A stretch of DNA of 32,000 nt from Mucisphaera calidilacus (GTDB lineage: Bacteria > Planctomycetota > Phycisphaerae > Phycisphaerales > Phycisphaeraceae). The notes under the pieces are model-generated. The model was not told where the DNA came from. It was given only the letters and a program-made list of their open reading frames with translations, and ran no database searches. Of this stretch, positions 3,996-22,364 are shown one piece after another. The stretch spans positions 1,740,001 to 1,772,000 of the forward strand of contig NZ_CP036280.1 in assembly GCF_007748075.1 (NCBI RefSeq), in the 5' to 3' direction. How positions within the stretch are numbered: position 1 is the first letter of the stretch; every line of letters starts with the position of its first letter. A program made the position numbers and the translations under genes.

Positions 3996-4856
3996 ATGTT
4001 CATGCATCGAGACACAGCCGCATCACCCAGATTGACATCCAGAGGCTTCACCCTCATCGAACTCCTTGTCGTGATCTCCATCATCGCGCTGCTGATCGGC
4101 ATCCTGTTGCCCGCGCTGGGGGCCGCACGCTCCACCGCACGCAACGCCGCCGACCTCAGCAACCTGCGGCAGATCGGCGTCGCCTATTTCGCGTGGCTGA
4201 CCGACAACGACTTTTCCGGATTCTCGGATTACCCCATGAACCTCCTCACCCAGGGCGGTTACATCGATCTTGAGAATACCGACACCGTGAACATCTGCCC
4301 CGAGACCGAATCACCCACCGATGTCGATGACGCCGTCTCTCAGGGTGCAACACAGATCGGGGCGAACGACTGGGGGGGCACCGCAAGCGTCGCCTACCAG
4401 CGCGGAACCTTTGGAGGGTTCGTGACCCGCAGCAGCTACACCTACAACGCGTGGCTCGCCACCGAGCAGTTCGCCAACGGCACCCCGAACTTCGTCGGCA
4501 ACTCTTATGGCTTTTCGTATCGTGATGAGTTCCGCTGGCAGAACTTCGACAGGGTCCGCAACACAAGCAACGTGCCTCTCGCGGGCGACGGATGCTGGAT
4601 CGCCATCGCCCCGGACGAGACACGCCCCGCACCCGGCGCCCTTGCCATCCACGACCGCTCGGCCCCCTTCACGAATCTCCAGCCTTTCCGGATCTACGGC
4701 TTCCACGAGATGTACATGGATCGGCACGGCAGCCACGTCAACATGGGCTTCGTTGATGGCAGCGTGCGCAACGTCCCGATCGACGATCTGTGGGACCTGG
4801 AGTGGCACGACAACTACGACTTCGACCTCGCCATGAAACCGTCGCAGCTGAAATAA
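3996..4856 (+). CDS. Pseudopilin-like protein with a prepilin-type N-terminal cleavage/methylation motif and a C-terminal H-X9-DG motif (DUF1559-type)
   Basis: [35 protein letters not shown] is a classic G/FTLIEL prepilin leader-helix. Near the C-terminus, [17 protein letters not shown] fits H-X9-DG (H, nine residues, DG). Confidence 0.9.
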
Positions 4857-4986
4857 CAGCAGCGAAGCTTGATGAGAAGGGCCGGCAGGATCGTCCGCGA
4901 ACAGGCTTTCGCACCAGCCCATGACCACTCCGCCTCATCACCGTGTCAGATCCGCCAGCCGCCCCGCCAGTCATGACCCCTGGTCT

Positions 4987-5028
4987 CTGGCGACGAGAGT
5001 CGCCGGAGACCGCTTCGGCTCTTGTGTT
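4987..5028 (+). terminator. Two adjacent hairpins between the pseudopilin-like gene and GH2; possible weak terminator or attenuator
   Basis: ctggcgac-gaga-gtcgccgg (4987-5006, 8-bp stem with one G-U pair). Then gag(a)ccg-ctt-cggctc (5006-5021) followed by ttgtgtt. Confidence 0.25.
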
Positions 5029-5093
5029 GATGAAGCCATCGCCTCTTACCTCGGCTTTCGGGCTAAACGCTCATCCCTAGGTTCTGGAACACC

Positions 5094-8000
5094 ATGTACA
5101 CCACCGACCGCAACATCCTGCATCGCCTCATGATCCTGATCGCTGCTGTGGCGGCGTGTTCACTCCTTGTCTCGCCGACGCGTGCCCAGAACATCGAGGG
5201 TGATCCCGCCAAAGCACGCCAACAAGAACTGGCTCAGCAGGAGGCCGGCCTCGGCCTGGCCGCAGGTGGCACCGCCGCAGAGATTCTGCCCAAGGTTCGC
5301 CTAACACCACGAGATGTCTCGATCACCGGGCTCGACGAACACCGCATCACGCTCGACGGAACCTGGCGGTTCGTCCACGAGGTCCCCGAGTCGTTCGACG
5401 GCAGCGCAGGCAGCGTCAAGGACTGGGGCGAGGTACAGATCCCGCGCCATTACGCCTTGCAGGGCTACCCGCGCATGCACCGCAAATTCGGCGTCCCGGT
5501 CGCTTACGCCAAACGCTTCACCATCCCCGACACGTGGCGGGGAAGGCGCGTCGCCCTGCGTTTCGAGGGTGTCGACGGCTACGCCAAGCTCTGGGTCAAC
5601 GGCCAGCCGGCGGGCAAGAACGACATCGCCACCCTGCCCAGCGAGTACGACATCACCCCCTTCATCCGCGCCGGCGAGAACGAACTCACACTCACCGTCG
5701 AGAAATCTCTGGTCACGCACTGGTCGCGCAGAGAACTCGGCGGGATCACACGCACCGTCTACCTGCAGGCCATGACCGAAGTCAATCTCGCGCGCCTCCA
5801 CGTTGATACCCGGCTAAATGCCGACGCAGCAAGCGCGACCATGAACGTGCACCTCCGCGTCGCCAACCAGAGCGACGCCGTCACGAGCAACCTCTTCGTG
5901 CAGCTCGCGCTCGAACGGGCCGACGGAACACCCGTAGCCATCGATTCCGCCGAAGCACGGACACCGCTTCCCGCGATCGCGCCAGGCCAGACGCTCGAGT
6001 TCATGATCCCGGTGCGGGTGCACAACATCGAGACGTGGACCGCGGAATCACCCAGCCTCTACATCGTCACCGGCGAACTGATCGACGAAGAACGCTCGCT
6101 GATGTCTGCCCGCCAGCGCTTCGGCTTCCGCGACGTTCGTGTCGCAGGACATCAGCTGTTGATCAATGGCTCGCCGGTCAAGCTGCGCGGCACCAACTAC
6201 CACATCACCCACCCGGATCATGGCGAATCGGTGCCTCGCGACCTCATCCAGCACGACATCGAACTCTTCAAGGGCTGCAACTTCAACGCCCTGCGATCAC
6301 GCCCCACGCCGGTCTACGACTACGTGGAGCTCTGCGACGAGATGGGTGTCTACACCACGGTCGAGGCGATGGTCTCCATCATGATGTACGACAAGGGGCC
6401 CGCCGGCGACTACGGCGCCGACCCGGCCATCGCGGGGCCCTACCGCCACCACGTCGCCACCATGATCGAGAGTTACTACTCCAACCCCTCGGTCATCACC
6501 TGGGGCCTCGGCAACGAGTGCGCTTATTACGACTACTTCAAGGTCGCGGCTCTCGGCATGCACAAGCGAGACCCCTCGCGACCCCTGTTCTTCGGTTCCG
6601 ACAACCGCCTGGGCGTCGGCATCCCCTACATGGATATCAACGACGACCACTACCCGCGCAATCGTGGCAACCGTGCGTCCGTCAGCATCGACGACCTCTC
6701 CCACGTCGCCGACGACGCCTGGGACTACCCCGATGACCGCCCGGTCTTCTTCACCGAGTGGCTCCACGTCCACACCAACAACGTCAAGGAGATCGCTTAC
6801 GACCCCGGCGTCGACGAGTTCTGGGCCCGCTACGCCGAAATCCACCTCAACCACATGTACCGGATGCCACACTTCCTCGGCGGATTCCACTTCAAGGGAG
6901 CCCCCTACCGCAACATCGGTGCACCCGGAATCTGGCGTGGCGTCTTCGACGCCGACCGCCGCATCAACAACCTCTACTGGCACGTGCTCAAGTCTCACTC
7001 TCCGGTACGCATTCACGAGACAGCGGGGCTGTGGGATCCCGTGACACAAACGCTGAACTTTGCCGTCGAAAACCGCTACGACTTCACCTCCCTGGACGAA
7101 CTCACACTCAACTGGACACACGGCGACCAGACCGGCCAGGCCGTGGCGGTTGGCGACCCGGGACAGACCGGGAAGCTGATGATCCCGATGACCGATCCCG
7201 CCGATCCTCGGCCGATCAGTCTCGAGGTCCGCGATCCCCACGGCGCACTGATCGATCGCTACCACCTCACCGTGCGAGGAACGCAGCAGCAACGCCAGAC
7301 ACCGGCCGCGGGAAAGAACCACCCGCTCGAGATCGAGCAGACCGACGACCTTCTGATCGTCACGACTGGTGATGTCCGCTACACCCTCGACCGGACAACC
7401 GGGCTGATCACGCAGGCCGCACGAGGTGGCGATGTCGTCATCGACGGATCACCCTCGCTCCTCGCCCTCCCGGCACAGCTCAAGAACTTCCGCGGCCAGC
7501 AGAAGCGCACACTCGTCAATCAGGCCGTGGGCTGGCAGGCGCAGCACGTCGACGTGAGCCAGCGCGAAGACCACGTCCGAATCCTCGCGACAGGACGATA
7601 CACCCAAGCCGAGGGAACGATCACCACCACCCTCCACGCCGACGGCACTGCCGAGCTCGCCTATGACTTCACGTGGACCGGCACTCAGCCCTTCGCGCTC
7701 TTCAGTTCCGGGTTGACCTTTCCCGTTACGGCAAGTCACGACCGCATCCGCTGGGATCGCAAGGCGCTCTGGAGTGTCTACCCGGACGATCACATCGGCC
7801 GATCTTCGGGCATCGCCATCGCAGCCGGCAACCCTGCCCTGGCGGCATCCAGAACGTCGTACACCGAGGGCCCCAGGCCGTGGCCGTGGTCAGCCGACCT
7901 GGTCTCCGGCGTCACGCGCGACTTCCGAAGCACGAAGTTTGACATCCGCACCGCCGGCCTGATTGATCAACAAAACAAGGGACTGCTGGTGGTCGGCAAC

Positions 8001-8246
8001 GGCAGGCAACACGTCCAGGCCGTCCCGCGCAACGATGACCTCGAAGGCAACATTTTCACCGCCGAACTCCACGGCCCGCCCGCAGACGGTTTCGATCTGC
8101 ACGTTCTGGACTTCCACAACGGCGGAACCGAGCCCCACCTGCTCAAGTCGATCCACTTCGAACTCAGGGATATTGAGTTCGGCTCACGGCTGACCGGTGG
8201 AGCCACGCTGCGTCTGGGCACTTATTCCGAGGACGCAGGCCGATGA
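5094..8246 (+). CDS. Secreted glycoside hydrolase family 2 enzyme (LacZ-like beta-galactosidase architecture)
   Basis: Signal peptide ...LMILIAAVAACSLLVSPTRAQ. GH2 sugar-binding domain pattern WRFVHEVP...DWGEVQIPRHYALQGY...RRVALRFEGVDGYAKLWVNGQPAG...SEYDITPFIRAGENELTLTVEK. FGFRDVRVAGHQLLINGSPVKLRGTNYH precedes the TIM barrel. WGLGNEC is the candidate acid/base site. The C-terminal ~300 aa resemble the beta-galactosidase small-chain domain (LEIEQTDDLLIVTTGDVRYTLDRTTGLITQ). Confidence 0.85.
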   Translation: MYTTDRNILHRLMILIAAVAACSLLVSPTRAQNIEGDPAKARQQELAQQEAGLGLAAGGTAAEILPKVRLTPRDVSITGLDEHRITLDGTWRFVHEVPESFDGSAGSVKDWGEVQIPRHYALQGYPRMHRKFGVPVAYAKRFTIPDTWRGRRVALRFEGVDGYAKLWVNGQPAGKNDIATLPSEYDITPFIRAGENELTLTVEKSLVTHWSRRELGGITRTVYLQAMTEVNLARLHVDTRLNADAASATMNVHLRVANQSDAVTSNLFVQLALERADGTPVAIDSAEARTPLPAIAPGQTLEFMIPVRVHNIETWTAESPSLYIVTGELIDEERSLMSARQRFGFRDVRVAGHQLLINGSPVKLRGTNYHITHPDHGESVPRDLIQHDIELFKGCNFNALRSRPTPVYDYVELCDEMGVYTTVEAMVSIMMYDKGPAGDYGADPAIAGPYRHHVATMIESYYSNPSVITWGLGNECAYYDYFKVAALGMHKRDPSRPLFFGSDNRLGVGIPYMDINDDHYPRNRGNRASVSIDDLSHVADDAWDYPDDRPVFFTEWLHVHTNNVKEIAYDPGVDEFWARYAEIHLNHMYRMPHFLGGFHFKGAPYRNIGAPGIWRGVFDADRRINNLYWHVLKSHSPVRIHETAGLWDPVTQTLNFAVENRYDFTSLDELTLNWTHGDQTGQAVAVGDPGQTGKLMIPMTDPADPRPISLEVRDPHGALIDRYHLTVRGTQQQRQTPAAGKNHPLEIEQTDDLLIVTTGDVRYTLDRTTGLITQAARGGDVVIDGSPSLLALPAQLKNFRGQQKRTLVNQAVGWQAQHVDVSQREDHVRILATGRYTQAEGTITTTLHADGTAELAYDFTWTGTQPFALFSSGLTFPVTASHDRIRWDRKALWSVYPDDHIGRSSGIAIAAGNPALAASRTSYTEGPRPWPWSADLVSGVTRDFRSTKFDIRTAGLIDQQNKGLLVVGNGRQHVQAVPRNDDLEGNIFTAELHGPPADGFDLHVLDFHNGGTEPHLLKSIHFELRDIEFGSRLTGGATLRLGTYSEDAGR

Positions 8247-9250
8247 CCATCACCATCCAGAACACCACGCCGCGACGCGATATCCACGGCCGAATCATCG
8301 ACTGCCACGACGGCTGCCTGCGCCACTTCGAGGGACGCTATTACCTCTACGGCACGCGCTATGGCAATACCGACGGGTTCACCAGGGCCAATCGCTACGT
8401 CTGCTACAGCTCCCCTGACCTTGAGAACTGGACACCACACGGCGAGATTCTTGACCGCTTCCCCGACGGCATCGGCTATCGGCCGTACGTCGCGTGGAAC
8501 CCCAAGACCTCACGCTATGTGCTCTGGTTCAACTGGTACCCCGAGCTGTGGGATGGTCAATATGGCGTCGCGGTCGCCTCCCAACCCGAGGGACCCTATC
8601 AACTCGTCGCCGAGCGTACCCCGGTCGTCATGCCGCAGCCCGGTGATCACAACCTCATGGTCGACGACGACGGCGCCGGTTATCTGATCTACACCTCGAT
8701 CACAGAAACGCCTGACGGCCATCACCACCTCAGCATCGAGCGGCTCGACGAGACCATGACCACCTCCACACAGGAGAACTCCGGGATCATTGACAGCTAC
8801 GTCGAAGCACCGGCACTCTTCCGCAGGGACAGGTGGTGTTACGCCATCTTTGGCAAGACCTGCTGCTTCGGTCAGCAGGGTTCGGACGCCCGCGTCTACC
8901 GCAGCCGAGACCCCCTAGGCCCATGGTCGTGGGCCGCAGAAATCAACCGCAGGGAAGACGGCACCATTGTCGTCCCCGGACAACAGACCGACGTCACCGC
9001 GCTGCCGACCGCGGAGGGTGTCCAGTGGGTCTGGATGGCCGACCTGTGGGGGTCCAGACCCGACGGCATCAAGGGGCACGATCTCCAGCACTGGGAGCCG
9101 TTGACGTTCGGCAGCGACGGCCTGCCCCTGACGCTGGAGGGGTGTAGGACATGGTCGTTGACACGCCCGCTGCAGGTGCATGTTAAGTCGGATATCACAC
9201 CCAGGCGTCCGGGCAAGGCATCGGTATCGTCAACCGCCTCACCACGATGA
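8243..9250 (+). CDS. Glycoside hydrolase family 43-like five-bladed propeller enzyme, possibly subfamily 24-like exo-beta-1,3-galactanase type; no signal peptide
   Basis: Its ATG overlaps the GH2 stop (ATGA at 8243-8246), which suggests translational coupling. RDIHGRIIDCHDGCLRHFEGRYYLYGTRYG resembles the D-x-x-G-x-x-I-x-A-H-G-G...G-x-YYWYG opening I recall for GH43_24. A later VEAPALFRRD segment fits the GH43 catalytic Glu region. The subfamily call is tentative. Confidence 0.7.
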   Translation: MTITIQNTTPRRDIHGRIIDCHDGCLRHFEGRYYLYGTRYGNTDGFTRANRYVCYSSPDLENWTPHGEILDRFPDGIGYRPYVAWNPKTSRYVLWFNWYPELWDGQYGVAVASQPEGPYQLVAERTPVVMPQPGDHNLMVDDDGAGYLIYTSITETPDGHHHLSIERLDETMTTSTQENSGIIDSYVEAPALFRRDRWCYAIFGKTCCFGQQGSDARVYRSRDPLGPWSWAAEINRREDGTIVVPGQQTDVTALPTAEGVQWVWMADLWGSRPDGIKGHDLQHWEPLTFGSDGLPLTLEGCRTWSLTRPLQVHVKSDITPRRPGKASVSSTASPR

Positions 9251-9434
9251 GTCAGGAATCAGGCAATCAACCAGCGCGACGCAGTCTTCGTTGCGAACAT
9301 GATGACGACACCAGCCGAGCGACATTGTTTGCAGCAACAACGTCGTCCCTGTCAATCTCAGCCACATGCTCGTTCATCATGACACTGAGGCCACAACCAC
9401 AGATGAAGAAGGGCACCTGAAGACCAGCTCTCCA

Positions 9435-9680
9435 CTCGTCAGGCTCGACGAAGCACTCTACGCCTATGCTCGTGTCGATGCCTGAGGCGGAGTCCGCACT
9501 GCCAGCTACGCCTTGCACGACTGGCAGCAGTAGGTCGACGTGATCAGGCTGTGCGTCAACGTCCCGCGGTCGGACACCTACAGCGTGCGTGCCGATCTGG
9601 TCGCTCGTGACAATCCCTCAGGTTCCCTCACGGTGCGTATGGATGGTGCCAAGATCGCTACCATCATGGACGCAATTTCT
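9435..9680 (+). pseudogene. Possible decayed carbohydrate-binding-module (CBM6/35-like) remnant with two in-frame stops
   Basis: A single + frame reads LVRLDEALYAYARVDA*GGVRTASYALHDWQQ*VDVIRLCVNVPRSDTYSVRADLVARDNPSGSLTVRMDGAKIATIMDA (TGA 9483-9485, TAG 9531-9533). The v-x-f-x-V-x-VP-x-x-G-x-Y-x-V-x-x-x ... L-x-V-x-x-x-G pattern is CBM6/35-like. By eye, third-position GC is higher in this frame than in the antisense 83-aa ORF. Confidence 0.3.
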
Positions 9681-9832
9681 TGCCGCCGTGTCAATATCGT
9701 AATTCTGGGAGCGCCGCGACGTGCATCCGGCACGCGGACCTCCGATGGCCCCATAAGTGATGCGATGACTCTGCTTTCACCAGGCCCGGGCGATGTGCTT
9801 CGAGAGGAGCGTCTGCTGGGGCTCGTTTGTCC

Positions 9833-11962
9833 TCAGGATCGGTCGGACGGTGTTCGGATCGCGACGGTCTGTGCGTGGTTGTGGAGGTGACAGGCGGCTT
9901 GCGTACGATCGGAGATCGCCTGGAGCTCTGGGCGTTGTTCCCTGCAGGCGGGCATGACCTCTCGGCACCGCGGGTTGAAGGCGCAGCCGGTGGGGAGGTT
10001 GGCGACGTCGGCGACCTCGCCACTGAGTTGGTGTTCGATCGTGATGTCCGGGTCCGGGCAGGGCACGGCGTTGAGCAGGGCGCGGGTGTAGGGATGGCTG
10101 GGGTTCTCGAAGAGCGTGTTCTTGTCGGCGATTTCCACGATTCGTCCTGCGTACATGACGGCGACGCGGTGGCAGATGTGCTTGACGACCGAGAGGTCGT
10201 GCGCGATGAAGATGTAGGTCAGGCGGTACTCGTCCTGCAGGTCGGCGAGCAGGTTGATGACCTGGGCCTGTACCGAGACGTCGAGCGCGGAGACCGACTC
10301 GTCGGCGATGATGAGTCGGGGGCGTACGATCAGGGCCCGCGCGATGCCGATGCGTTGCCGCTGACCGCCTGAGAATGCGTGGGGGTAGCGGTTGCGGTAT
10401 TCCGGCCGGATGCCAACGCGTGTCAGGATGGCGGCGACGCGGTCGTGGAGTTCGCTGCCGGAGGCCAGCCGGTGGATTCTCAGCGGCTCGGAGACGATCT
10501 GCTGGATCGTCATGCGTGGGTTGAGCGAGCTGAAGGGATCCTGAAAGATCATCTGCAGTTGCGTCCGGAGCGGCTTGAGTTCTGCCTCGCGCAGTGAGGC
10601 GAGGTCGTGGTAGTGGTTGCTGGTTTCGTCGCGATAGAGCACCTCGCCGGATGTTGGTTTAATAGCGCGCAGGATGGCCCTGCCCAGCGTGGTCTTGCCG
10701 CACCCCGATTCGCCGACCAGTCCGAGTGTCTCGCCGGGCATCAGGTCGAAGCTGATGTTGTCGCAGGCTCTGACGGTGCCGATGCGTTTGCGGATCAGGC
10801 TCTTGCTGAGGACGGGATAATGCTTGGAGAGTCGGCGTACAGAGAGGATCGGTTCGCTGTGCTGGTGCGTCGCGTCGGTCTGTGCGGCGTTGGGTGTCGA
10901 CGCCGATGGTGCGTCGTCCGGGGGGTTCATGAGCGTGATGTGGGGGTGTCGTTGGAGGTCGCCCGGCTGCGGGATGCTGCTGCTGCGTTGCGCGGCTGAA
11001 TCGATCTCGGCGGCGCGGAGGCATGCGGCGTGGTGGCCATTGGTGACCTTCACGAGGTCGGGAGGTTGGCCGCGGTCGCATTCGCCGGCGACGGCGTAGG
11101 CGCAGCGTGGGTGGAAGGAGCATCCGGCGGGGAGATGGGAGCTGCCCGGAACGGATCCGGGGATCGATGGGAGCCGGGTGATGCCGGCGTTCATGCTGGG
11201 CAGTGATCTGAGCAGGCCGATGGTGTACGGGTGACGTGGTGTCTTGAGGATGGTGCGTACGTCGCCGCGCTCGACGATCTTGCCGAGGTACATGACGGCG
11301 ACCTCGTCGGCGATCTGCGCCACGACGCCGATGTCGTGGGTGATCATGAGGATCCCCATGCCCAGGTCCTGCTGGAGGCCCTTGAGCAGTGTGAGGATCT
11401 GTGCCTGAATCGTGACGTCGAGGGCGGTTGTGGGTTCGTTGGCGATGAGGAGTTCGGGTTTGCAGACGAGTGCCATGGCGATAACGACGCGTTGACGCAT
11501 CCCGCCGGAGAGCTCGTGCGGGTACTGGTCGAGTCGGTCGTGTGCCCCGGGGATGCCCACGCGTGCGAGCATGTCACCCGCCATGCTTCTGGCCTGGCTT
11601 TTGGTGACGTGCTGGTGTAGCAGGATGCTCTCGATGATCTGGCTGCCGATCGTGTGAACGGGGCTGAGCGCCGTCATCGGTTCCTGGAAGATCATGGACG
11701 CCCAGCCGCCTCTGAGGCTGTAGAGCGTGTCGTCGTGTTCGCTGAGCGAGGCGATGTCGGTGGTGCCTTGGCCGCGTCGGTGTGCGCGGATGGATCCTCG
11801 TGTGATGCGTCCGGGCTTCTGGATCAGGCGGAGCAGGGCGTAACTCGTCACGCTCTTGCCACAGCCGGATTCGCCGACGAGCGCGAGCACGCTGCCGCGT
11901 CGCATGCTGAAGGAGACGCCATCGACCGCGCGGACCTCCCCGAGGTCGGTGAAAAAGCTCAC
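9833..11962 (-). CDS. Opp/Dpp-type ABC transporter ATP-binding protein with two fused ATPase modules (DppD-DppF-like); the true start is probably upstream of the GTG given here
   Basis: Walker A appears twice ([22 protein letters not shown]). Signatures LSGGMRQRV and FSGGQRQRI. Walker [13 protein letters not shown] and [12 protein letters not shown]. Both halves carry oligopeptide-type C-terminal extensions (HPYT..., Cys-containing tails). The conserved first strand LLEVNDLHV is encoded in-frame upstream of GTG 11962 (see findings). Confidence 0.9.
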
Positions 11963-12020
11963 GTGGAGGTCGTTGACCTCGAGCAGGGGCTGTTCTCGGG
12001 GTGGTGCGTTGTCGTCGATG

Positions 12021-13160
12021 TCATCGTCCCTCGTAGGGGTCGGCGGCGTCGCGGAGGCCGTCGCCCAAGAAATTGAAGCTCAGCACGGTGGTGATGATGA
12101 AGACGACCGGCATGAGTAACCAGGGGTAGAACCGCACGGCCTTGACGTCGAGGCAGTCCTGGAGCATGACGCCCCAGCTGACGATGGGCGGCCTGAGCCC
12201 GAGCCCGAGGAAGCTGAGCGAGGTCTCGCCAAGGATCATGGCCGGAGCGGCGAGCGTGAGTGCGACGATGATGTGGCTGGTAAATCCCGGAAGCAGGTGG
12301 AGGAAGAGGACTCGTGTGTGAGAGGCTCCGAGGAGTCGTGCGGCGACGGCGTAGTCTTCCTCGCGCAGGGAGAGGATCTTCCCGCGCACGACGCGTGCCA
12401 GTCCTGTCCAGTTGAGCAGGGAGAGGAGGACGGTGATCGCGAAGTAGATTTTCAGGGCGGACCACTCGGGGGGAAGCAGGGCCGCGAGGGCGATCCAGAG
12501 AGGCAGGTGCGGGAAGGAGTTGATGATCTCGATCGACCGCTGGATGAGGTTGTCGGCGCGGCCACCGAGGTAGCCGCTGATGCTGCCAATGACGATGCCG
12601 AACACGAACGTGCACCCGATCCCGATGATGCCCACCGAGAGTGAAACGCGGGCGCCGTAGACAGCTCGGCTGAGGATGCATCGTCCCAGTTCGTCGGTGC
12701 CGAGCGGGTAGTAGGTCATCAATTCGTGATGGTCGGCATCCTTCGATTCGGCGGAAACGGTGAGCAGGTGGCGTTCAAGAGGGATCAAACCCCAGAGCTT
12801 GTAGGGTGCGCCACGTCCGAGCAGTCTGACCGGAACGATCACGTCTTCCCGCAGGAGGTAGGACTTACGGAACGTGACGGGATCGATCTGCTGCTCGTAC
12901 CCGTAGGTATAGAGGCCGTGTTGCGTGCTGATGAGCAGGAGTTGTGGCGGGCAGTAGACGTGATCGAGGTTGCGTTGATTCGGGGGGTTCACGGCGAGTG
13001 GTTCGGCAAAGATCGCCACGGAGTAAATGAAGATCAGGAAGAGCGTGGAGATGACGGCGAGCCGATGCCTGAGGAAGCGTCGAAGGATCAGCCGCCACTG
13101 CGACATAACCTCCATGCCCGTGTTCCGGTGCTCGTTGGGCGTTGGTGTCTGCTGGTTCAC
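12021..13160 (-). CDS. ABC transporter permease, DppC/OppC-like
   Basis: Multi-pass membrane protein with the EAA-loop region [28 protein letters not shown] typical of DppC/OppC. Its GTG start overlaps the stop of the upstream gene (GTGA, 13157-13160). Its stop overlaps an ATG (ATGA, 12021-12024). Confidence 0.9.
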
Positions 13161-16100
13161 GTGGTCACCTCGTCGTAGCGGACACGCGGATCAAGCCAGA
13201 GCAGGAGGAGGTCGCTGACGAGGGTTCCGAGCACGCCGAGCATGCTGAGGACCATGAGCATCGATCCGGCGAGGTACATATCCTCGCTGAAGAGGGCCGC
13301 GAGCAGGAGCGGGCCGACCGTGGGCAGTGACAGGACCATCGCCACGATGGCTCCACCCGAGACGAGTTGCGGGAAGACGTGCCCGATGCCGGAGATAAAC
13401 GGGTTGAGTGCGACACGCACCGGGTATTTGAGCAGGAGCTTGATGGGTCGGACGCCCTTGGCTCGCGCGGTGGTGACGTAGGGCTTGCTGAGTTCGTCGA
13501 GGAGGTTGGCGCGCATGACGCGGATCATGCCTGCCGTGCCCGCGACGCCCATCACCAGCACGGGGACCCAGATGTGGCGTAGCAGGTCGATCAATTTGCC
13601 CCATGTCCATTCTGGCTGTGCCGCGTACTCGGGCGAGAAGAGGCCTGAGACGTCGGCGAGGACCATGAGCACGAGTGCGAGCAGGAAGCCGGGGATGCTC
13701 ATGCCGATGAAGCCCACGAGCGTGAAGGCGTAGTCGGCGAGGGAGTATTGCCTGACCGCGGAGTAGATGCCGATGGGTATCGCGACCGCCCACGTGAAGA
13801 GGATCGTGCCGGCCGAGATACAGACGGTCAGGATGATGCGGTCGCCTACGATCTGGTTGACCGGCTGAGCGGTCTCCATGGAACGGCCCATGTAGCCCTG
13901 GAGCAGGCCGGCATCGGCCACATCAAGGCTCGTAAACCAGAAGAATCCCATCCATCGCGCGTACTGCTTCCACATGGGTTCGTCGAAATGGAAGAGTTGC
14001 CTGAGGTCCTCGATCTCCTGTTCGGCGTCGGCGTTGCCCGCCTCCTGGAGTTGGACGAGTCGCGCGGTGAGGTAGTCGCCTTCGGGGAGTTGGATGATGG
14101 TGAAGACGATGATCGAGATCACAAAGAGGGTGGGGATCATGATCAGCAGCCGCCGGCCGATGTAGGGGTGCTTGATCGCAATCAGGAGTAAGGCGAGTGC
14201 CACGATGCCGAGGATCACGGAGCGGATCAGGGAACCTAGGGGGATGGCCCGATCGATCGTGTCGGGCGAAGAACCGTCGAGGCGTGGTCGTGCGATCGGA
14301 TTGACGATGGCGTTGCGTACGTCGTCGATAGCCCCCTGCGACATCACGGGGTTCTCGAAAAAGAAGGTTTCGATGCCGGCGTTCCCCGGCGTCATGGCCA
14401 CGAAACCGAAGAGTGCGTTCTTCGGTACGTTGCGCATGTCCTCGTCCAGCACGACGAGTTGAGGCGGCGCATCGGCGATATTGATTGTCCAGATGTTCTC
14501 TGCACCGATCGCGAAGACCTTCTTCATCAGTGCGATCTGCTCTGATCGGCTGGGTGCCAGCAGTGCCTGCTCGTAGAGGTCGTAGGCGCGGTACATGGGG
14601 TGGTCACGGGGCGGTGGTCTCGCGTTGGCGACGCGTTTGGCCCTGGGATCGTCGTAGTATCCGCCCAGCGCGTACCACTGGGCCCATTGGGTGGCGTAGA
14701 ACGCTTCGATGGAGTGCGGGATGAAGTAGCGTGGTTCGATGACGGCGAAGAAATCACTCTCACCGCTCCAGATGTTGAAATCGAAGTCAGCCGCGTTCTT
14801 GTGGAGGTAGAAGAGTTGTCGTGCTCGCTCCTGCAGGATGGCCCGCACGCCGACCGCCGCCCAGTCATCGACGACGAAGTGCCCCGGGCCGATATCCGTG
14901 AACTGGCTGTACTCGATAAAGAAGGTCATCGTTGATCCGTCGGGGTAGGTGCGCATGCCGTCGGCGTCTCGTCCGGTCAGCCCGAGTTCGTCGAGTAAGG
15001 CGTTTGCTCCCTGGGTGTCGTGGTCGATGAAGGCCTGCCTGAGTTCCGGGCTTGAGAAGGGGGACTCGGGGCCGGGTTCGACCTGCGCCGGCTCGACCTG
15101 GTCGTTGTACAGGGCGCGGATGATCGCTTTTCGGTCGATCGCCAGCGAGAGCGCCTGGCGGAAGCGTTTGTCCGCCAGCAGCTGGGCCTTCCATCGGGTC
15201 GACGGGCGTTCGGGGTCGATGCGTCGATTCAGGTTTGGATTGATCACCCAGGGTGATCGTGTCGCGGAGTACCAGTGGAGCACGCGCATGCCGGTTGATT
15301 CTGCGCGGTCAAACAACTCGGTGTAGTTCTCGTAGCGCACGTGCCGGGTTTGCATGCTCACCTCGCCGTTGACAAAGCTCAGTGCCATCATCTGGCCGCT
15401 GCGCACGGCGAACTGCAGGCGGTCGATGTAGGGCAGCTGATTGCCCGATTCATCGACGGCGAAGTAGAACGGGTTGCGGACAAAGACCTGGGGCGGATTC
15501 GCTTTGTAACTGCGGTAGATCCACGGCCAGAGCCGTGGGCAGTCGGGGTTCATGAAATTCCGCATGTAGGCATACAGCGCCCTCGGGCTGGGGAGTTGGT
15601 AGGCCTGCATGCCCTCGGCGATGCGATCCTGGTCGCCGAGTGTCGGGTGATAGGGGCGCAGGTAGTGTTCGGGATCCTGCGTCATGTAGAAGCTGTAGGT
15701 TGCCATGATGCGTTTGAAGTGCGGGTACGGCTTCGTGAAGCGGAACAGGAGCGTGTAGTCATCGATCATGTCGATCGTGCCCGGGTCCGCACCGGTGTAC
15801 ATCCATCTTGGTGGGATTCCGTCGGTGAGGTCCTCGCTCAGTTCCTGGTCCCGCCACCAGTACATCACGTCGTTTGCGGTGAAGGGGTGGCCATCCGACC
15901 ATCGGACGCCACGCCGCAGACGCACCGTGAATGTTCTCATGTCCTCTGATGGCTCGAAGGACTTGGCAAGATGAGGGACGACCGGTTCGCCAAGCGGCGA
16001 CCAGCGGAAAAAGCCGGTGTACGACATCCTGTTCTGGATGACCCCGACGTCGTTTTCAGAACTTGCGACGCGTAGCCAGGTTCCGCCGTAGTTTCCGATT

Positions 16101-16453
16101 CCGTCCACGCCGCGCATGACGAGTGGTTCGGGTCCGGTGCGGTCGCGGACAGGAGGCAGATCGCCCGATTCAACGAGTTGGGCCAGGATCGGCGACTCGC
16201 CGCGTGGCCACCAGGAAGCGTCGCTACCCTCACTGCTGTCAACATCCACCTGCAGCCTCGGGAGGGTATCGATCCGTTGTGAGTCGAAGGAGACATCGCG
16301 GTCACGCTCGATGCTCGCGAGCAGATCGGGATCGACATCGATCGGGGCGTCTGATGCTTGTGGCTGCAATGACCAGCTCAGCAGCCAGAGGAGCAGCGCA
16401 AAGCAGAACCCTACACCCGTGACACCTGCGAAGAGATAGAACAGATACTTCAT
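13157..16453 (-). CDS. Fusion protein: N-terminal membrane anchor + family-5 (Opp/Dpp-type) substrate-binding domain + linker TM helix + DppB/OppB-like permease
   Basis: A single uninterrupted 1098-aa ORF. N-terminal anchor MKYLFYLFAGVTGVGFCFALLLWLLSW. Family-5 SBP pattern ...VFVRNPFYFAVDESGNQLPYIDRLQF... . Extra hydrophobic helix LIRSVILGIVALALLLIAI (about 14174-14240). Then a canonical DppB opening YIGRRLLIMIPTLFVISIIVFTIIQLPEGDY and EAA-loop region LDELSKPYVTTARAKGVRPIKLLLKYPVRVAL (permease part about 13160-14173). Confidence 0.9.
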   Translation of the reverse strand: MKYLFYLFAGVTGVGFCFALLLWLLSWSLQPQASDAPIDVDPDLLASIERDRDVSFDSQRIDTLPRLQVDVDSSEGSDASWWPRGESPILAQLVESGDLPPVRDRTGPEPLVMRGVDGIGNYGGTWLRVASSENDVGVIQNRMSYTGFFRWSPLGEPVVPHLAKSFEPSEDMRTFTVRLRRGVRWSDGHPFTANDVMYWWRDQELSEDLTDGIPPRWMYTGADPGTIDMIDDYTLLFRFTKPYPHFKRIMATYSFYMTQDPEHYLRPYHPTLGDQDRIAEGMQAYQLPSPRALYAYMRNFMNPDCPRLWPWIYRSYKANPPQVFVRNPFYFAVDESGNQLPYIDRLQFAVRSGQMMALSFVNGEVSMQTRHVRYENYTELFDRAESTGMRVLHWYSATRSPWVINPNLNRRIDPERPSTRWKAQLLADKRFRQALSLAIDRKAIIRALYNDQVEPAQVEPGPESPFSSPELRQAFIDHDTQGANALLDELGLTGRDADGMRTYPDGSTMTFFIEYSQFTDIGPGHFVVDDWAAVGVRAILQERARQLFYLHKNAADFDFNIWSGESDFFAVIEPRYFIPHSIEAFYATQWAQWYALGGYYDDPRAKRVANARPPPRDHPMYRAYDLYEQALLAPSRSEQIALMKKVFAIGAENIWTINIADAPPQLVVLDEDMRNVPKNALFGFVAMTPGNAGIETFFFENPVMSQGAIDDVRNAIVNPIARPRLDGSSPDTIDRAIPLGSLIRSVILGIVALALLLIAIKHPYIGRRLLIMIPTLFVISIIVFTIIQLPEGDYLTARLVQLQEAGNADAEQEIEDLRQLFHFDEPMWKQYARWMGFFWFTSLDVADAGLLQGYMGRSMETAQPVNQIVGDRIILTVCISAGTILFTWAVAIPIGIYSAVRQYSLADYAFTLVGFIGMSIPGFLLALVLMVLADVSGLFSPEYAAQPEWTWGKLIDLLRHIWVPVLVMGVAGTAGMIRVMRANLLDELSKPYVTTARAKGVRPIKLLLKYPVRVALNPFISGIGHVFPQLVSGGAIVAMVLSLPTVGPLLLAALFSEDMYLAGSMLMVLSMLGVLGTLVSDLLLLWLDPRVRYDEVTT

Positions 16454-16472
16454 ACCAGTCAGACTCGCTCAG

Positions 16473-16529
16473 CAGCGTGACTTTAACTGATACCCGGCGT
16501 GGCGTGGGCCGGGTGACGCGGTCACGCTG
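16473..16529 (-). promoter_or_regulatory. Nested inverted repeat 20 nt upstream of the ABC operon start codon; possible 5'-UTR structure or operator
   Basis: Outer arms CAGCGTGAC (16473-16481) / GTCACGCTG (16521-16529). Inner arms ACCCGGC (16492-16498) / GCCGGGT (16508-16514). Confidence 0.2.
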
Positions 16530-16738
16530 GCGATCGTTCGCGAGGACGAGCCCATCGCGCGATTGCGTCGGGAACGGTCTGCCCGTAATCGCTCATGGCT
16601 CACGGCCACGTCGATCCGAGATAGCATCTGGGTATCACACGTGGAGGTGGGTCGGTTGCCCGCGATTCACAGCCGTCCGCATCCCAGTCTCTCAACCGTG
16701 ATGCATGTCGCAGCGCGGCAAGTCGACGGAGGCAAAGA

Positions 16739-18427
16739 TTGACCTGGCACCTGCTGCTGGACATTCTGATGCTGCTCGGGGCGGCGCTCGTTCTCGGCGT
16801 CGTCGCCGAGCGACTGCGTCAAAGCGCGATCCTTGGCTATCTGGTAGCGGGTACACTCGTCGGGCCGGCGGCCTTTGCGCTTGTCGACAGCACCGAAGAG
16901 GTACACGCGATCGCCGAGCTGGGCGTGGCGATGCTGCTGTTTTCCATCGGCTTGGAGTTCTCGCTCGATCGTTTGCGTCGACTGGGATCGATCGCGCTGA
17001 TCGGCGGTACCGCTCAGATCCTGCTGACACTTGTCGTCGCGGCGGGCGCTGCCTGGGGACTCGGCCTTGGCCCACGGGCCGCGATCGGTGTCGGCGCGCT
17101 GCTCGCGTTGTCCAGCACCGCCTGCGTGCTTCGGATCCTCAGTGATCGTGGAGCGATCGACACACTCTACGGCCGCAACTCGCTCGGGATCCTGCTGATG
17201 CAGGATGTGGCCGTTGTCCCCCTCGTCCTGCTGCTGACCGTGCTTGCGCGAGGTGGTTCCGTTGATCAGACCATGGCCACGCTTGGGAAGACCTTAGGTC
17301 TTGGGCTGCTGCTGATCGGTGCCTTTCTGCTGCTGTTTCGCTACATCGCTCCGCGGCTCTTTCGGCTACGCCCCTGGGCCCAGAACCGGGATCTGCCGGT
17401 GCTGCTGGCCATCGTCATGGCCATCGGCTCGGCGATTGCCGCGCATGAGATGGGCATCTCGCCGGCCATGGGGGCTTTCGTCGCCGGGGTGCTGCTGGGC
17501 GAGTCTCCCTTCGCGGTGCAGGTCCGTGCCGACGTCGCCAGTCTGCGAACGCTCTTCGTAACGTTGTTCTTCGCCTCGGTGGGCATGCTGGGCGACCCGG
17601 GCTGGGTCGCCGCGAACGTGCCGCTGGTTGGTGGCACCGTTGCCGCCATCATCATCGGGAAAGGCCTGCTGGTCGTGGTGGTGGTCCGCGCACTTGGTCA
17701 CTCGACGGGCGTCGCGATGGCGACGGGTCTGTGCCTTGCCCAGGCAGGAGAGTTCTCCTTTGTGCTGGCGAAGATTGGGCGTGGGACGGTGTTCGACGAG
17801 CAGCTGTTCAGGCTGATCGTCTCCTCCACCATCCTGACGCTGTTCGTCACCCCGTTCCTGATCGGCCTGGCGCCCCGGGTCGCATCGGCATGGACACGCT
17901 TGGCGGTCCGATCGTCCAGGCGCGCCGCGCCGACACCGACTGGTCCGGACCCGGCCGAGGCCGACACCCCCTCGCCGAAGCGTGACATTCTGGTCATCGG
18001 TTTCGGCCCCGCTGGCCAGCAGGCGGTGGATCACCTGCGTAGCGACTACGCCGAACGAATACAGGTCATCGAGCTGAACCCTCGCAACGCATCAGACGCG
18101 AGGCTGCGTCGTCTCGAGGTACAGGTCGGCGATGCAACGCGCCAGGATGTTCTTGAGCATGCCGGGATCTATGACGCGACCGTCATCCTGGTGACGATCC
18201 CGGACGCGCACGCGAGCCGAACCGTCATCCATCACTGCCGTCAAATGGCGCCTGCGGCGTCTGTTGTCGTCCGGGCTCGCTACCACGTTGTGCGCTGGGA
18301 GCTTCAACTCGCGGGCGCTCTCACCGTTGTCGATGAGGAACTCGAGTTGGGCAGAGCCATCGCCACAGCCGCGCGTCAGCACCTGACCGGCGTGACCACG
18401 GACTCTCCGACTGACGAAGCCGTGTAG
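16739..18427 (+). CDS. Kef-type monovalent cation:proton antiporter (CPA2 family) with a C-terminal TrkA-N/RCK NAD-binding domain
   Basis: TTG start. N-terminus LLLDILMLLGAALVLGVVAERLRQSAILGYLVAGTLVGP is typical of KefB/KefC-like proteins. About 12 hydrophobic helices. The C-terminal Rossmann motif DILVIGFGPAGQQAVDHL is followed by IQVIELNP...GDAT. Confidence 0.85.
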   Translation: MTWHLLLDILMLLGAALVLGVVAERLRQSAILGYLVAGTLVGPAAFALVDSTEEVHAIAELGVAMLLFSIGLEFSLDRLRRLGSIALIGGTAQILLTLVVAAGAAWGLGLGPRAAIGVGALLALSSTACVLRILSDRGAIDTLYGRNSLGILLMQDVAVVPLVLLLTVLARGGSVDQTMATLGKTLGLGLLLIGAFLLLFRYIAPRLFRLRPWAQNRDLPVLLAIVMAIGSAIAAHEMGISPAMGAFVAGVLLGESPFAVQVRADVASLRTLFVTLFFASVGMLGDPGWVAANVPLVGGTVAAIIIGKGLLVVVVVRALGHSTGVAMATGLCLAQAGEFSFVLAKIGRGTVFDEQLFRLIVSSTILTLFVTPFLIGLAPRVASAWTRLAVRSSRRAAPTPTGPDPAEADTPSPKRDILVIGFGPAGQQAVDHLRSDYAERIQVIELNPRNASDARLRRLEVQVGDATRQDVLEHAGIYDATVILVTIPDAHASRTVIHHCRQMAPAASVVVRARYHVVRWELQLAGALTVVDEELELGRAIATAARQHLTGVTTDSPTDEAV

Positions 18428-20098: not shown

Positions 20099-21016
20099 GT
20101 GGACCAGCCCCCCCGCGTCGTCGGACTTGGCGAAGCACTCTTCGACTGCTTCCCGGATCGTATTGTCCTTGGCGGCGCACCGGTTAATTTCGCCGTCCAC
20201 GCCGATCGACTCCTCAACCCGACTGGCGGTTCGGGCACCATACTCAGCCGTGTCGGATCCGATGCCCTCGGCCGCAAGCTCACGGATGAACTGGTTCAAC
20301 GAGGCATCGACACCGGTCATTTGCAGCACGATCCCAACTACCCGACCGGCACGGTCGATGTCAGGCTCACCGATGAAGGGCAGCCCGATTACACCATCAC
20401 GCCCGACGTGGCCTGGGATCACCTCGACTTCGATGAGCGTGCTCGAGGTCTTGCTGAATCGTGCCAGGCCGTCTGCTTCGGCACACTCGCTCAACGGTCC
20501 AAGCCGGCACGGTCGTCCATCCAGAGCTTTCTGGAATCCGCCGCCGACGCGATTCGCATGCTGGACATCAACATCCGCAGAGGCTATGACCTTGCCCCTC
20601 TGCTGCCGCGCAGCATCGAATTGGCAACCGTAGTCAAGCTCAACGAGCACGAATTGCCGCTTGCAGCAGAGATCCTCGGCCTGACAACCTCCGGCCAACC
20701 ACTGGCCCAGCTCGAAGCACTGCTGGATGAAGGCGGGCTCGACGCGGTAGCGCTGACACGGGGATCCGAGGGCACGCTGTTGATGACTAAGCAGGGAGGC
20801 TTCGAGGGCGAGCCGGGCAGCTTCAATCCGAATCCCGATGCGGACAGCGTGGGCGCGGGCGACGCGTGTGGCGCGGGGCTCGTCGCCGGAATGTTGCTGG
20901 GCCTTGATCCCCGAGACATCGTGACGCTTGCCAATGCGATGGGGGCTCACGTCGCTTCGTGTCCCGGCGCGACACCACCGCTACCCGACAGGATCCTGGA
21001 TCTCGTTCGCCGGTAA
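20099..21016 (+). CDS. PfkB-family carbohydrate kinase (fructokinase-like)
   Basis: VVGLGEALFDCF...LGGAPVNFAVHADRLL opening and the C-terminal DSVGAGDACGAGLVAGMLLG (PfkB GAGD motif). GAAGGA lies 7 nt upstream of the GTG start. Only 37 nt separate it from the regulator gene, so the two probably form an operon. Confidence 0.8.
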   Translation: MDQPPRVVGLGEALFDCFPDRIVLGGAPVNFAVHADRLLNPTGGSGTILSRVGSDALGRKLTDELVQRGIDTGHLQHDPNYPTGTVDVRLTDEGQPDYTITPDVAWDHLDFDERARGLAESCQAVCFGTLAQRSKPARSSIQSFLESAADAIRMLDINIRRGYDLAPLLPRSIELATVVKLNEHELPLAAEILGLTTSGQPLAQLEALLDEGGLDAVALTRGSEGTLLMTKQGGFEGEPGSFNPNPDADSVGAGDACGAGLVAGMLLGLDPRDIVTLANAMGAHVASCPGATPPLPDRILDLVRR

Positions 21017-21039
21017 GAACACCTATCTGGTCGGGGCAT

Positions 21040-21073
21040 AAAAAAACACCCCGCGAGCGCGAGGTGCTGTTTT
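21040..21073. terminator. Bidirectional intrinsic terminator between the kinase gene and the convergent pseudopilin-like pseudogene
   Basis: A7 run (21040-21046), a hairpin at 21047-21066 (outer stem cacc/ggtg and inner stem cgc/gcg separated by one c-a mismatch, loop gagc), then tgtttt (21068-21073). This gives a U-run on either strand. Confidence 0.55.
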
Positions 21074-21096
21074 GAGATGCGTTGAAAGCCCGTGGT

Positions 21097-22001
21097 TTAC
21101 TGCCACCAGACGTAGCCGGGAGCGAGATTGCCGTTCTCGTCCGTGTCGTTCTCGAGGAAGATGTCATCCTCCGCGGCCGTCGGCAGTTCACCGTACTGGA
21201 GGTTCTCCATGATGTGGCTGCTCTCAAAAGTCGTGCTGCCATCATTCCGGACCACCGTGCCCTGCCAGGCGGGCGAATCGCCAGAAGAGGTCGGGTCGGT
21301 CCATATGCTGTACTCGGAGCCCGAATCACCAAAGCTGCGGTCGGTCAGCAGGACCGCCGAGGTATTCAGCTCATCACGTCACTCCAGCCACCGATTCATC
21401 TTGCTCGCGTCCGTAAAACCTCGGTACTGAGCAAATACGGCGATATTCGGGTCGTTGTGCCTGAAGAGCAGAGCAAGGCAGGCGTAGGAGAACTTGGGGT
21501 TGTGCTCGCTGCCGTACTTCGAGTCATAGGACGTGATCGTGCCTTCGGGGGCGCCGTCGCCGTCGAGGTCCTGGGTCTCGCCCGGAACCGCGGCACGGCC
21601 TCATCATCCCCCGGGCTGATGAGATAATCAGCCGAGAACATGCCGCTGTTGAGGAGGATGGCCAGCCGTGTCGAGGGGAGACTTCCGAGCGAGCCACGCG
21701 ACACCGCGTGCTCAGCACCACCCTCGTAATCATCACCATCAGTGAGCAGCGGGCCCCGCGTGTTGGAGAAGCCTTAGCCGACGGTGTCGCCTTGGTTATC
21801 GATTCCCGCGTACCAGCCGCCGTTGCTCTGGGCATGGATCACAAGCCCCTGATGAATGCCGCGGAGTTGGGTTGAGTTCTGCAACTGACGGGCCGTTCGT
21901 CGGGCTGCACCCAACGCCGGCAGCAGAATGCCGATAAGCAGCGCGATGATGGAAATGACTACCAGCAGTTCGATGAGCGTAAAGCCTTCAGATCGCCGCA
22001 T
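21097..22001 (-). pseudogene. Disrupted pseudopilin-like (prepilin N-terminal motif, DGS-type C-terminus) gene with two in-frame stops and one frameshift
   Basis: ATG at complement 21999-22001 gives [39 protein letters not shown]...[10 protein letters not shown]. Then TAA (21774-21776) interrupts, and the same frame continues GFSNTRGPLLTDGDDYEGGAEHAVSRGSLGSLPSTRLAILLNSGMFSADYLISPGDDEAV. Sense moves to another frame around 21578-21603 (PGETQDLDGDGAPEGTITSYDSKYGSEHNPKFSYACLALLFRHNDPNIAVFAQYRGFTDASKMNRWLE). TGA (21379-21381) follows, then RDELNTSAVLL...AWQGTVVRNDGSTTFESS...GYVWWQ and TAA at 21097-21099. The length of 905 nt is not a multiple of 3. Confidence 0.6.
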
Positions 22002-22101
22002 GTTGAACCTCGTCTGTTGTTGCCAGCTTGGGTTGAAACGCTCAGGCAGTGATTTGATTCCGAGAGCCACGCAAAGAATACGAGTGACGAACTCTGATTT
22101 A

Positions 22102-22129
22102 ACTTTACTTTTAGCATCGCATATGTCAA
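22102..22129 (-). promoter_or_regulatory. Sigma70-like promoter candidate upstream of the pseudopilin-like pseudogene
   Basis: On the minus strand: TTGACA (complement 22124-22129), a 16-nt spacer, then TAAAGT (complement 22102-22107). It lies in an AT-rich island about 100 nt upstream of the ATG. Confidence 0.35.
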
Positions 22130-22364
22130 CTTTTTCTCACTATTAATATTACATATTTAACTCCTTGTCCTTGTCTTAATTTTACATTTGCAATCGCATT
22201 GACAACGGATGTCTGAGTCCATACTGCTATAAATCCCGTAAGACACTCCCCTGAAATCACTTGCAGAGAGTCTCGCGCGGGCTCGATCCCCAGATTCATG
22301 TTTTACAGTTTCAGGTGCTTCCGGCTACCTCTCGGCAGTCAGATCACCTCGCGTACCCGCGCTC

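Follow-up and report, generated by a model that had tools for sequence, protein, structure and literature searches.

ATP-binding cassette (ABC) importers with a fused receptor, among them OpuA and GlnPQ, have been central to work on the mechanism of ABC importers, and the well-studied cases combine small receptors with homodimeric permeases. A sugar importer of related design is the maltose transporter of Bdellovibrio bacteriovorus in which, according to Licht et al. 2019 as cited in PMC6906923, MalE is fused to MalF, giving a receptor:transporter ratio of 1:1. Here we analyse a three-gene locus in a 32,000-nucleotide stretch of the Mucisphaera calidilacus genome (hereafter the window), where the receptor of an importer related to the oligopeptide and dipeptide (Opp/Dpp) systems is continuous with one of its two permeases. 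Our analysis makes it likely that these genes encode a type I ABC importer of the Opp/Dpp type (Transporter Classification, TC, 3.A.1.5) whose receptor is built into the translocator and whose cargo is an oligosaccharide.

To judge from that citation, the Bdellovibrio transporter is the closest functional precedent, since it too carries one binding domain on one subunit of a heterodimeric pair, in a type I sugar importer of a diderm host. However, it is of the carbohydrate uptake transporter 1 (CUT1) type, with a cluster B/D receptor and MalF/MalG permeases, and it is a single case as reported there, whereas the present fusion joins a family-5 cluster-C receptor to an OppB-type permease via a dedicated helix, has a probable second anchor and belongs to a large multi-phylum family. 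A preliminary description of the locus had named the GlnPQ and OpuA types as the known fusions; both are indeed established, but the characterised Bdellovibrio case, as far as the citing paper describes it, had been left out. With OpuA, OpuF, EgtU and GlnPQ the present protein shares a receptor covalently joined to the membrane domain and, being a single polypeptide, it belongs to the class of fused-receptor importers, although not to the OpuA/GlnPQ subtype of cluster-F receptors on homodimers. OpuA, with its short linker and hydrophobic anchoring helix, even offers the same topological solution, albeit with the domain order reversed. These systems have small cluster-F receptors, homodimeric permeases and two or four receptors per complex, and they come mostly from Gram-positive bacteria; here, by contrast, there would be one large cluster-C domain for each OppB/OppC heterodimer, in diderm bacteria of the Planctomycetes-Verrucomicrobia-Chlamydiae (PVC) group and Gemmatimonadota.

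Among systems with unfused receptors, OppABCDF, DppABCDF and GsiABCD have the same four domain families and the gene order A-B-C-D-F, and GsiA/YejF-type proteins (GsiA being the best NCBIfam match) have a fused double ATPase as well, but the classical Opp, Dpp and Gsi systems use a free periplasmic or lipoprotein receptor and take up peptides, glutathione, nickel or opines. Closest in sequence and fold are SPH1118, MelB/Atu4661 and 5IPW, which have the same enlarged receptor of ~610-680 aa; unlike the present one, all three are free soluble proteins, with 21-33% identity to the fusion domain. Finally, archaeal Opp-class binding proteins of Sulfolobus and Aeropyrum have a C-terminal transmembrane anchor after a linker (PMC3387779). 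These too are family-5 receptors with a linker and C-terminal helix, such that read-through into oppB would give the present fusion, but they have no permease fusion and their N-terminal signal is cleaved. We found no described family-5/OppB-type fusion in the full-text literature, InterPro, TCDB and some key papers lying outside the scope of that search, which agrees with the earlier remark that binding-protein-to-permease fusions are not known to have been characterised in the peptide/Opp family; provisionally we take the arrangement to be undescribed.

In the list of open reading frames (ORFs), the minus strand carries three that point the same way: 13157-16453 with 1098 aa, 12021-13160 with 379 aa and 9833-11962 with 709 aa. 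The first, the fusion gene, runs without interruption to a stop codon at 13157-13159. Its GC content at third codon positions (GC3), taken in frame, is coding-like across the junction (0.73 over residues 700-740 and 0.88 over 740-790, compared with 0.81 for the whole gene), and because it is kept through the junction we take the whole ORF to be coding. Mapping the profile boundaries, as the preliminary description had suggested, Pfam places SBP_bac_5 (PF00496) at residues 158-567 (E 2.2e-48), BPD_transp_1_N (PF19300) at 764-879 and BPD_transp_1 (PF00528) at 891-1092; three motifs picked out earlier lie at 327-348 (NPFYFAVDESGNQLPYIDRLQF), 745-760 (SVILGIVALALLLIAI) and 764-777 (YIGRRLL..IPTLF).

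From its N-terminus, the protein can be divided as follows, all coordinates being on the minus strand. An N-terminal hydrophobic helix, TM0, probably an uncleaved signal anchor, occupies residues 2-29 (16367..16450), as seen from hydropathy at 7-25 and an AlphaFold2 helix. An N-terminal, presumably periplasmic, tether follows at residues 30-84 (16202..16366), with a short conserved helix at 42-52; in alignment A1 its R52 is invariant and F56/D57 are nearly so, and AlphaFold2 models it with a predicted local distance difference test score (pLDDT) of ~91-95. The family-5 (cluster C) binding domain, a member of a large glycan-binding clade, spans residues ~85-700 (14354..16201) by PF00496, alignment to 5IPW and Foldseek, and thus measures ~615 aa, less than the ~650 aa first estimated. 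The C-terminal tether, residues 701-738 (14240..14353), consists of an AlphaFold2 helix at 706-717 and then a low-confidence, poorly conserved stretch whose sequence varies among homologs. It leads to an extra transmembrane helix, TML, at residues 739-760 (14174..14239), identified from a hydropathy of 2.81 at 742-760, from AlphaFold2 and from its presence in 120 of 120 homologs. A basic, presumably cytoplasmic loop, KHPYIGRR, with 3 K/R in 8 residues (761-768; 14150..14173; homolog consensus RHP[FY][IV]xxR), joins TML to the permease, and its YIGRR is the usual OppB N-terminus. The OppB-type permease domain itself, residues 764-1098 (13160..14164), has six helices and a TARAKG coupling-loop motif, and is defined by PF19300 and PF00528 and by an Opp4B match over 764-1092. 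Thus the ORF list, Pfam and GC3 bear out a single uninterrupted ORF in four parts, as proposed, and Pfam and six hydrophobic segments agree that a complete DppB-like permease starts at YIGRRLL..IPTLF.

The 379-aa partner (12021..13160, minus strand) is an OppC-type permease with OppC_N and BPD_transp_1 domains, and its GTG start overlaps the stop of the fusion gene (GTGA, read as cacGTGAacc), so that both the assignment and the overlap are as first described; the same 4-nt overlap occurs in homologous loci, including L053-L057. NCBIfam places every part in the Opp/Dpp/Nik/Gsi group, with scores that stay far under the equivalog cut-offs (Opp4B 192 vs 450 bits, Opp4C 267 vs 350, GsiA 646 vs 1077), which marks the system as a family member rather than an ortholog of a named system. 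Of the features that define TC 3.A.1.5, a PF00496 domain, an OppB and OppC permease pair and two oligo_HPY ATPase domains are present; a score above the equivalog cut-off of any named system and a separate free binding protein are missing.

The architecture is not peculiar to the window. In a search of 5.8 billion proteins (E <= 1e-10) there were 2517 matches, and the best 120 clusters, which we examined, are proteins of ~1030-1180 aa with 55-64% identity, all with PF00496 and PF00528 and named in their sources merely as 'ABC transporter permease subunit' or 'substrate-binding protein'. All 120 have TML, followed by the short basic loop and permease helix 1; in 112 of them there is also a hydrophobic segment at the N-terminus, and the rest seem to be truncated gene calls. 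A scan of one genome per species gave 51 loci with a fused gene or fragments of one, in Planctomycetota (Phycisphaerae, Tepidisphaerales including the cultured Fontivita pretiosa, and Pirellulales), Verrucomicrobiota (Opitutales, Puniceicoccaceae), Lentisphaerota/Victivallales and Gemmatimonadota; single contigs of metagenome-assembled genomes (MAGs) with the fusion carry the labels Nitrospira, Rubrivivax or Polyangiaceae. With at least 120 clusters and 51 loci in four phyla, the fusion of binding protein and permease is real and the same architecture does occur elsewhere. One candidate, L052 (Cohnella), considered as a distant Firmicute fusion, is actually an ordinary unfused permease pair.

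The fusion has a single origin. A HMMER search with query residues 61-765 against 1.84 billion representatives at 50% identity gave 1249 matches at E <= 1e-30, the best 150 of which comprise 13 full-length fused proteins (1036-1185 aa, down to ~35% identity), fragments of such proteins and, for the rest, free receptors of 600-700 aa with 30-38% identity. The fused representatives inspected keep TML and the RHP/RRYP loop to ~35% identity. Neighbour-joining analysis of the binding domain (597 columns, 126 representatives) groups the 22 representatives that are fused or fragmentary with a free protein of 679 aa (P0170) in a single clade at a bootstrap of 99/100, and this clade indicates that the fusion arose once, with one possible later fission. 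Among the 106 nearest unfused representatives we found no stand-alone C-terminal helix, the three that seemed to have one being truncated fusions, and this leaves an origin via a C-terminally anchored free receptor of the archaeal type unsupported.

How would such a protein lie in the membrane? By Kyte-Doolittle hydropathy the 1098-aa protein has eight hydrophobic segments (7-25, 742-760, 769-787, 874-892, 915-933, 961-979, 1036-1054 and 1066-1084). Between TM0 and TML lie 716 residues that are acidic on balance, and the 56-residue permease loop with the TARAKG coupling motif contains 8 K/R. Under the positive-inside rule, this charge pattern would put the N-terminus inside, the binding domain outside and the end of TML back inside, followed by a six-helix OppB with both termini inside. 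An AlphaFold2 model of the fusion, run on alignment A1 (112 sequences), has a pLDDT of 88.5 and a predicted template modelling score (pTM) of 0.87, with helices at 2-29 (pLDDT >90), 739-760 (pLDDT ~50-70) and 763-787, and with pLDDT <50 at 733-739. Hydropathy, the basic loop and the model thus back the idea that the extra helix supplies the cytoplasmic start that an OppB-type permease needs, and they suggest that the binding domain is on the outside.

Whether the receptor is also held at its N-terminus depends on whether TM0 is retained. In the homologs 2-6 K/R precede the N-terminal segment, whose uncharged run has a median length of 23 residues (>=18 in 107/112) and is followed, in the 112 homologs, by a conserved motif, [GA]W[LM]xRPD[LVM][SA]; no conserved small-x-small (AXA) cleavage site follows the segment across these 112 sequences. 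The long uncharged run, the lack of such a site and the conserved, confidently modelled next 55 residues favour an uncleaved anchor, and we consider it probable that TM0 is one, so that the receptor would be tied at both ends. A real fusion with TM0 as a cleaved Sec signal peptide would leave the receptor on its C-terminal tether only, like the single tether of GlnP. That arrangement, which we judge unlikely though by no means negligible, would account for the n-region/h-region layout of TM0 and for the small residues at SWS|LQ and QA|SD in the window sequence, and many of the nearest unfused relatives do have ordinary signal peptides or lipoboxes. However, the uncharged run is long for the h-region of a signal peptide, and WLxRPD puts bulky or charged residues and a proline at the cleavage position. 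Moreover, the helix is modelled with pLDDT >90, the next 55 residues hold invariant positions, and among the closest free receptors P0148, P0153 and P0159 have a similarly long N-terminal hydrophobic anchor as their only possible tether. Of the proposal that the binding domain is tethered at both ends, then, the extra helix on the C-terminal side stands, while the N-terminal tether is likely and hangs on the retention of TM0.

The third gene encodes an OppD-OppF double ATPase in one frame. Pfam finds two ABC_tran (PF00005) and two oligo_HPY (PF08352) domains in the 709-aa protein, and from Pfam, GC3 and the N-termini of homologs we place the gene at 9833..12024 on the minus strand, with a probable start at ATG 12024 in place of the listed 11962. 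Every homologous ATPase begins with Met and 5-20 residues before the motif [VL]L[EQ][VI]xxLxxxF. In the window this conserved first strand is found in frame upstream of GTG 11962, with no ATG, GTG or TTG in that frame, and the comparison places the true start upstream of 11962. ATG 12024, which overlaps the OppC stop (ATGA), is one base out of the ATPase frame, and one more C in the C4 run at 11986-11989 brings it into frame; a probable 1-nt homopolymer miscall there is the simplest explanation, a real frameshift being the alternative. In-frame GC3 is 0.83 both through the 45-50-residue linker between the D and F parts and over the 709-codon ORF, and the D-F fusion is supported as real in the window. 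The earlier claim that both ATPases share the polypeptide 9833-11962 therefore holds as to the fusion, but its start was set too far downstream. Among loci with both ATPase domains, these are separate genes in 17 of 18, and they share one frame only in the window and L011; compression of the importer into three genes is thus a property of the window and not of the family.

These irregularities bring up the possibility that the window copy is decaying or non-functional while the family as a whole functions. In its favour are the missing canonical in-frame start for the conserved first strand, the D-F fusion, which is unusual among relatives, and an Asn codon at 11438..11440 (minus strand) that replaces the Walker B Asp of the first nucleotide-binding domain (NBD1), where 22 of 22 homologs read ADEPTTALD and the window reads ANE; the Asn may be a base error, a mark of decay or a sign that the site is degenerate. 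On the other hand, nothing interrupts the fusion and OppC ORFs, whose GC3 is strongly coding-like (0.81-0.82), the ATPase is open for 709 codons at its GC3 of 0.83, the start is explained by a single homopolymer miscall, and one degenerate ATPase site is tolerated in many ABC systems. Taken together we find decay improbable.

The nature of the cargo is suggested by the relatives of the binding domain and by the surrounding genes. Over ~600 residues each, the domain matches T. maritima 5IPW (E 8e-92), SPH1118 (E 2e-68) and MelB/Atu4661 (E 3e-35), and Foldseek gives TM scores of 0.67-0.89 to glycan-binding cluster-C proteins, with 0.89 to galacturonate-bound SPH1118. SPH1118 of Sphingomonas A1 is a cluster-C protein that binds pectin oligosaccharides and does not respond to peptide mixtures (PMC9314435); the ligands of MelB/Atu4661 are melibiose, raffinose and galactinol; and 5IPW was deposited as a putative oligopeptide-binding protein, without ligand. 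Across the fused family three arginines are invariant or nearly so, R142, R545 (= SPH1118 R466) and R575 (= R496). Transferring further SPH1118 contacts puts R57 at N141 (R142 being adjacent), R438 at Q517 and W594 at F684, so that of the acid-sugar contacts only the two arginines equivalent to R466 and R496 and the aromatic platform (W594 to F684) are kept. Positions 131, 133, 137, 141, 517, 682 and 684 differ between paralogs, a pattern that fits diversified specificity.

In the window, one side of the importer has an AraC regulator, a dockerin protein, a pseudopilin-like N_methyl protein and glycoside hydrolases (GH) of families GH2 and GH43. The other side has a Na+/H+ exchanger, a GntR-type sugar regulator, a PfkB kinase, a DUF5060/GH5-like protein, a mannanase-like protein with a carbohydrate-binding module (CBM), GH113 and LacI, and a GH130 gene (PF04041, E 1e-15) runs off the window end. 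Domain scans thus agree that the importer lies between clusters of carbohydrate-active enzymes (CAZymes) with GH130 near the end of the window. Its relatives have GH130, GH2 and LacI in L053, BNR, GH43 and GH51 in L054, and GH78 rhamnosidase, sulfatase and PhyH dioxygenases in Opitutales; the three closest orthologs (L055-L057, 61-64% identity) lie with pectate lyase, pectinesterase, rhamnogalacturonan I (RG-I) lyase and the 2-keto-3-deoxygluconate (KDG) pathway. Because the solved relatives bind glycans and because glycan-degradation genes surround both the window copy and its relatives, the sequence comparisons support well the view that the substrate is an oligosaccharide, most likely plant-derived, and not a peptide, as had been proposed. 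The narrower suggestion of manno- or galacto-oligosaccharides is not established, the closest orthologs being in pectin loci.

The contrary view, a true Opp/Dpp peptide importer with a tethered peptide receptor and CAZyme neighbours by coincidence, draws on the names of all four domain families, which refer to peptide or nickel transport, on the best NCBIfam matches (Opp4B/Opp4C and GsiA/DppF), on the deposited title of the ligand-free 5IPW, which is the nearest solved relative, and on one Opitutia orphan fusion that adjoins an M14 carboxypeptidase. However, the NCBIfam scores of the permease and binding protein are far under the equivalog cut-offs, and classical OppA, DppA and NikA match the binding domain over short stretches only, with E >= 1e-12. 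Moreover, the relatives with defined ligands bind pectin oligosaccharides or alpha-galactosides, with SPH1118 binding no peptide mixtures, and glycan genes recur around the relatives in four different flavours. We regard a peptide importer as slightly more improbable still than a decaying copy.

The last alternative, that the 1098-aa ORF is an artefact in which a sequencing or assembly error has removed the stop between a binding-protein gene and an adjacent oppB, could point to the probable homopolymer error in the same operon and to frame breaks or insertions in some long-read MAG relatives (including the first fused copy of L023), but it is effectively refuted, with a negligible chance of being right, since the architecture and length recur in at least 120 clusters that are independent of one another and come from a wide range of assemblies and sequencing technologies, as well as in ~50 loci, since an unfused pair would not encode the TML found in 120/120, and since in-frame GC3 is kept across the junction.

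While the architecture, its conservation and single origin, the kinship of the binding domain and the gene neighbourhoods are shown directly, the following account of how the integrated importer works is a proposal. The positively charged N-terminus would stay in the cytoplasm and TM0 would cross outward, to be followed in the periplasm by a tether of ~55 residues, the cluster-C domain of ~615 aa and a second tether of ~38 residues, after which TML would cross back. Eight residues of basic loop after TML, the ordinary OppB permease would begin on the cytoplasmic side. The fusion would form a heterodimer in the membrane with the translationally coupled OppC-like permease, served by the OppD/OppF ATPase; each transporter would therefore have a single receptor, kept at the pore by two tethers or, less probably, by just one. 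The binding domain would close on an oligosaccharide freed by the neighbouring secreted glycoside hydrolases and dock on OppB/OppC, ATP binding would open the pore for the sugar to enter, and the imported sugar would be processed by cytoplasmic enzymes, such as the GH130 phosphorylase, GH2 and GH43.

A number of points weigh against this proposal. Every mechanistic step in it is a proposal, the topology is read from hydropathy, charge bias and the AlphaFold2 model, and the model gives TML itself a pLDDT of merely ~50-70. Small residues at SWS/LQ occur in the N-terminal sequence of the window. The ligand contacts of SPH1118 are partly conserved and predict no specific sugar. Some relatives adjoin PhyH dioxygenases or a carboxypeptidase, not CAZymes. 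The ABC operon forms a transcription unit of its own, which converges on GH2-GH43 and diverges from the Na+/H+ exchanger, so that nothing but proximity links it to the CAZymes. Finally, with the start-frame problem and the Walker B D-to-N change in its ATPase, the window copy may be impaired or its sequence erroneous.

Not every fused gene has a complete set of partners. Of the 22 loci in which 6 kb or more of flanking sequence is available on each side, nine have OppC and ATPases with the fusion, five have OppC only and eight have neither. In nine loci of Opitutales/Opitutia (L014, L019, L023, L025, L026, L028, L029, L043 and L049) no OppC-type permease or ATPase was found within 10 kb on either side of the fused genes, and L023 carries three tandem fused copies (2954-6175, 6469-9684 and 10001-13216), the first of them split into two ORFs. 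The Opitutales orphans lie beside GH78 rhamnosidases, a sulfatase, GntR/FCD regulators and a porin. How could orphan copies function? Tentatively, these bacteria could have a combinatorial importer in which several subunits, each a receptor and half-pore with its own specificity, compete for one OppC/OppDF core, though we think this somewhat doubtful. If it were true, substrate choice would be a matter of swapping the receptor plus half of the translocation pathway, not free binding proteins.

More generally, the family would provide a natural case of a large Opp-type receptor covalently coupled 1:1 to a heterodimeric permease, in a diderm setting where an excess of free periplasmic receptors is the rule. 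Its carriers among Planctomycetota and Verrucomicrobiota are major degraders of polysaccharides whose sugar uptake is poorly understood, and our analysis could help to annotate thousands of genes, so far labelled merely 'substrate-binding protein' or 'ABC transporter permease', as likely importers of oligosaccharides in loci for glycan utilisation. The fusion is also a compact target for structural study of how Opp-type receptors dock, and its orphan and tandem copies raise the testable question of shared transporter cores.

Some further observations concern individual loci. In long-read MAGs, insertions of 1.1-1.8 kb interrupt the fused genes of L043 (12361-13533) and L049 (8170-10001), at query residues 800 and 263, and the fused gene of L037 changes frame around 10435; these interruptions may be mobile elements, pseudogenes or assembly errors. 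A gene of ~900-1000 aa of the PATR type (autotransporter-associated beta-strand repeat) directly follows OppC in L056 (14550-17531) and L057 (14563-17247), lying in L057 between OppC and two ATPase genes; an ATPase gene was not found in the L056 locus. Directly upstream of the fusion, L055 (8791-9849), L056 (8892-9824), L057 (6675-7613) and L058 (8890-9873) have a gene of 310-350 aa with no Pfam match, which is absent from the window, where the divergent Na+/H+ exchanger gene stands in its place. PhyH-type genes (phytanoyl-CoA dioxygenase family) beside Opitutales fusions, up to four in one locus, include L023 718-1569, 13599-15589 and 22503-23198, L025 14047-14895 and L029 14034-14864. Two proteins, P0180 (1395 aa) and P0190 (992 aa), have the same large family-5 domain at the C-terminus of other architectures, one of them after a long N-terminal region that by eye resembles PAS/GAF sensor domains and the other after a multi-helix region with a HELAH motif that by eye resembles a BlaR1/M56 peptidase; they may be receptor-coupled signalling proteins.

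Within the window, a promoter/terminator scan of 9200-16800 found none and is uninformative, as its sigma-70 consensus may not be the host's, and the gap of ~1.35 kb that separates the PfkB kinase from the GH5-like gene (21016-22365) has no ORF >=200 aa in any frame, the longest being 183 aa. Type I dockerin-like modules occur at 2491-3894 (+), 25445-26803 (-) and 26849-28384 (-), on GH113, on the mannanase-CBM protein and on one protein without any other Pfam domain, and no cohesin-bearing scaffold is evident within the window. Proteins of ~250-300 aa with a prepilin-type N-terminal methylation motif are encoded close to the fused importer and its CAZymes at 3996-4856 (+) and 28439-29329 (-), and likewise in L053-L057; one protein with this motif has a faint SBP_bac_10/DUF1559 match.

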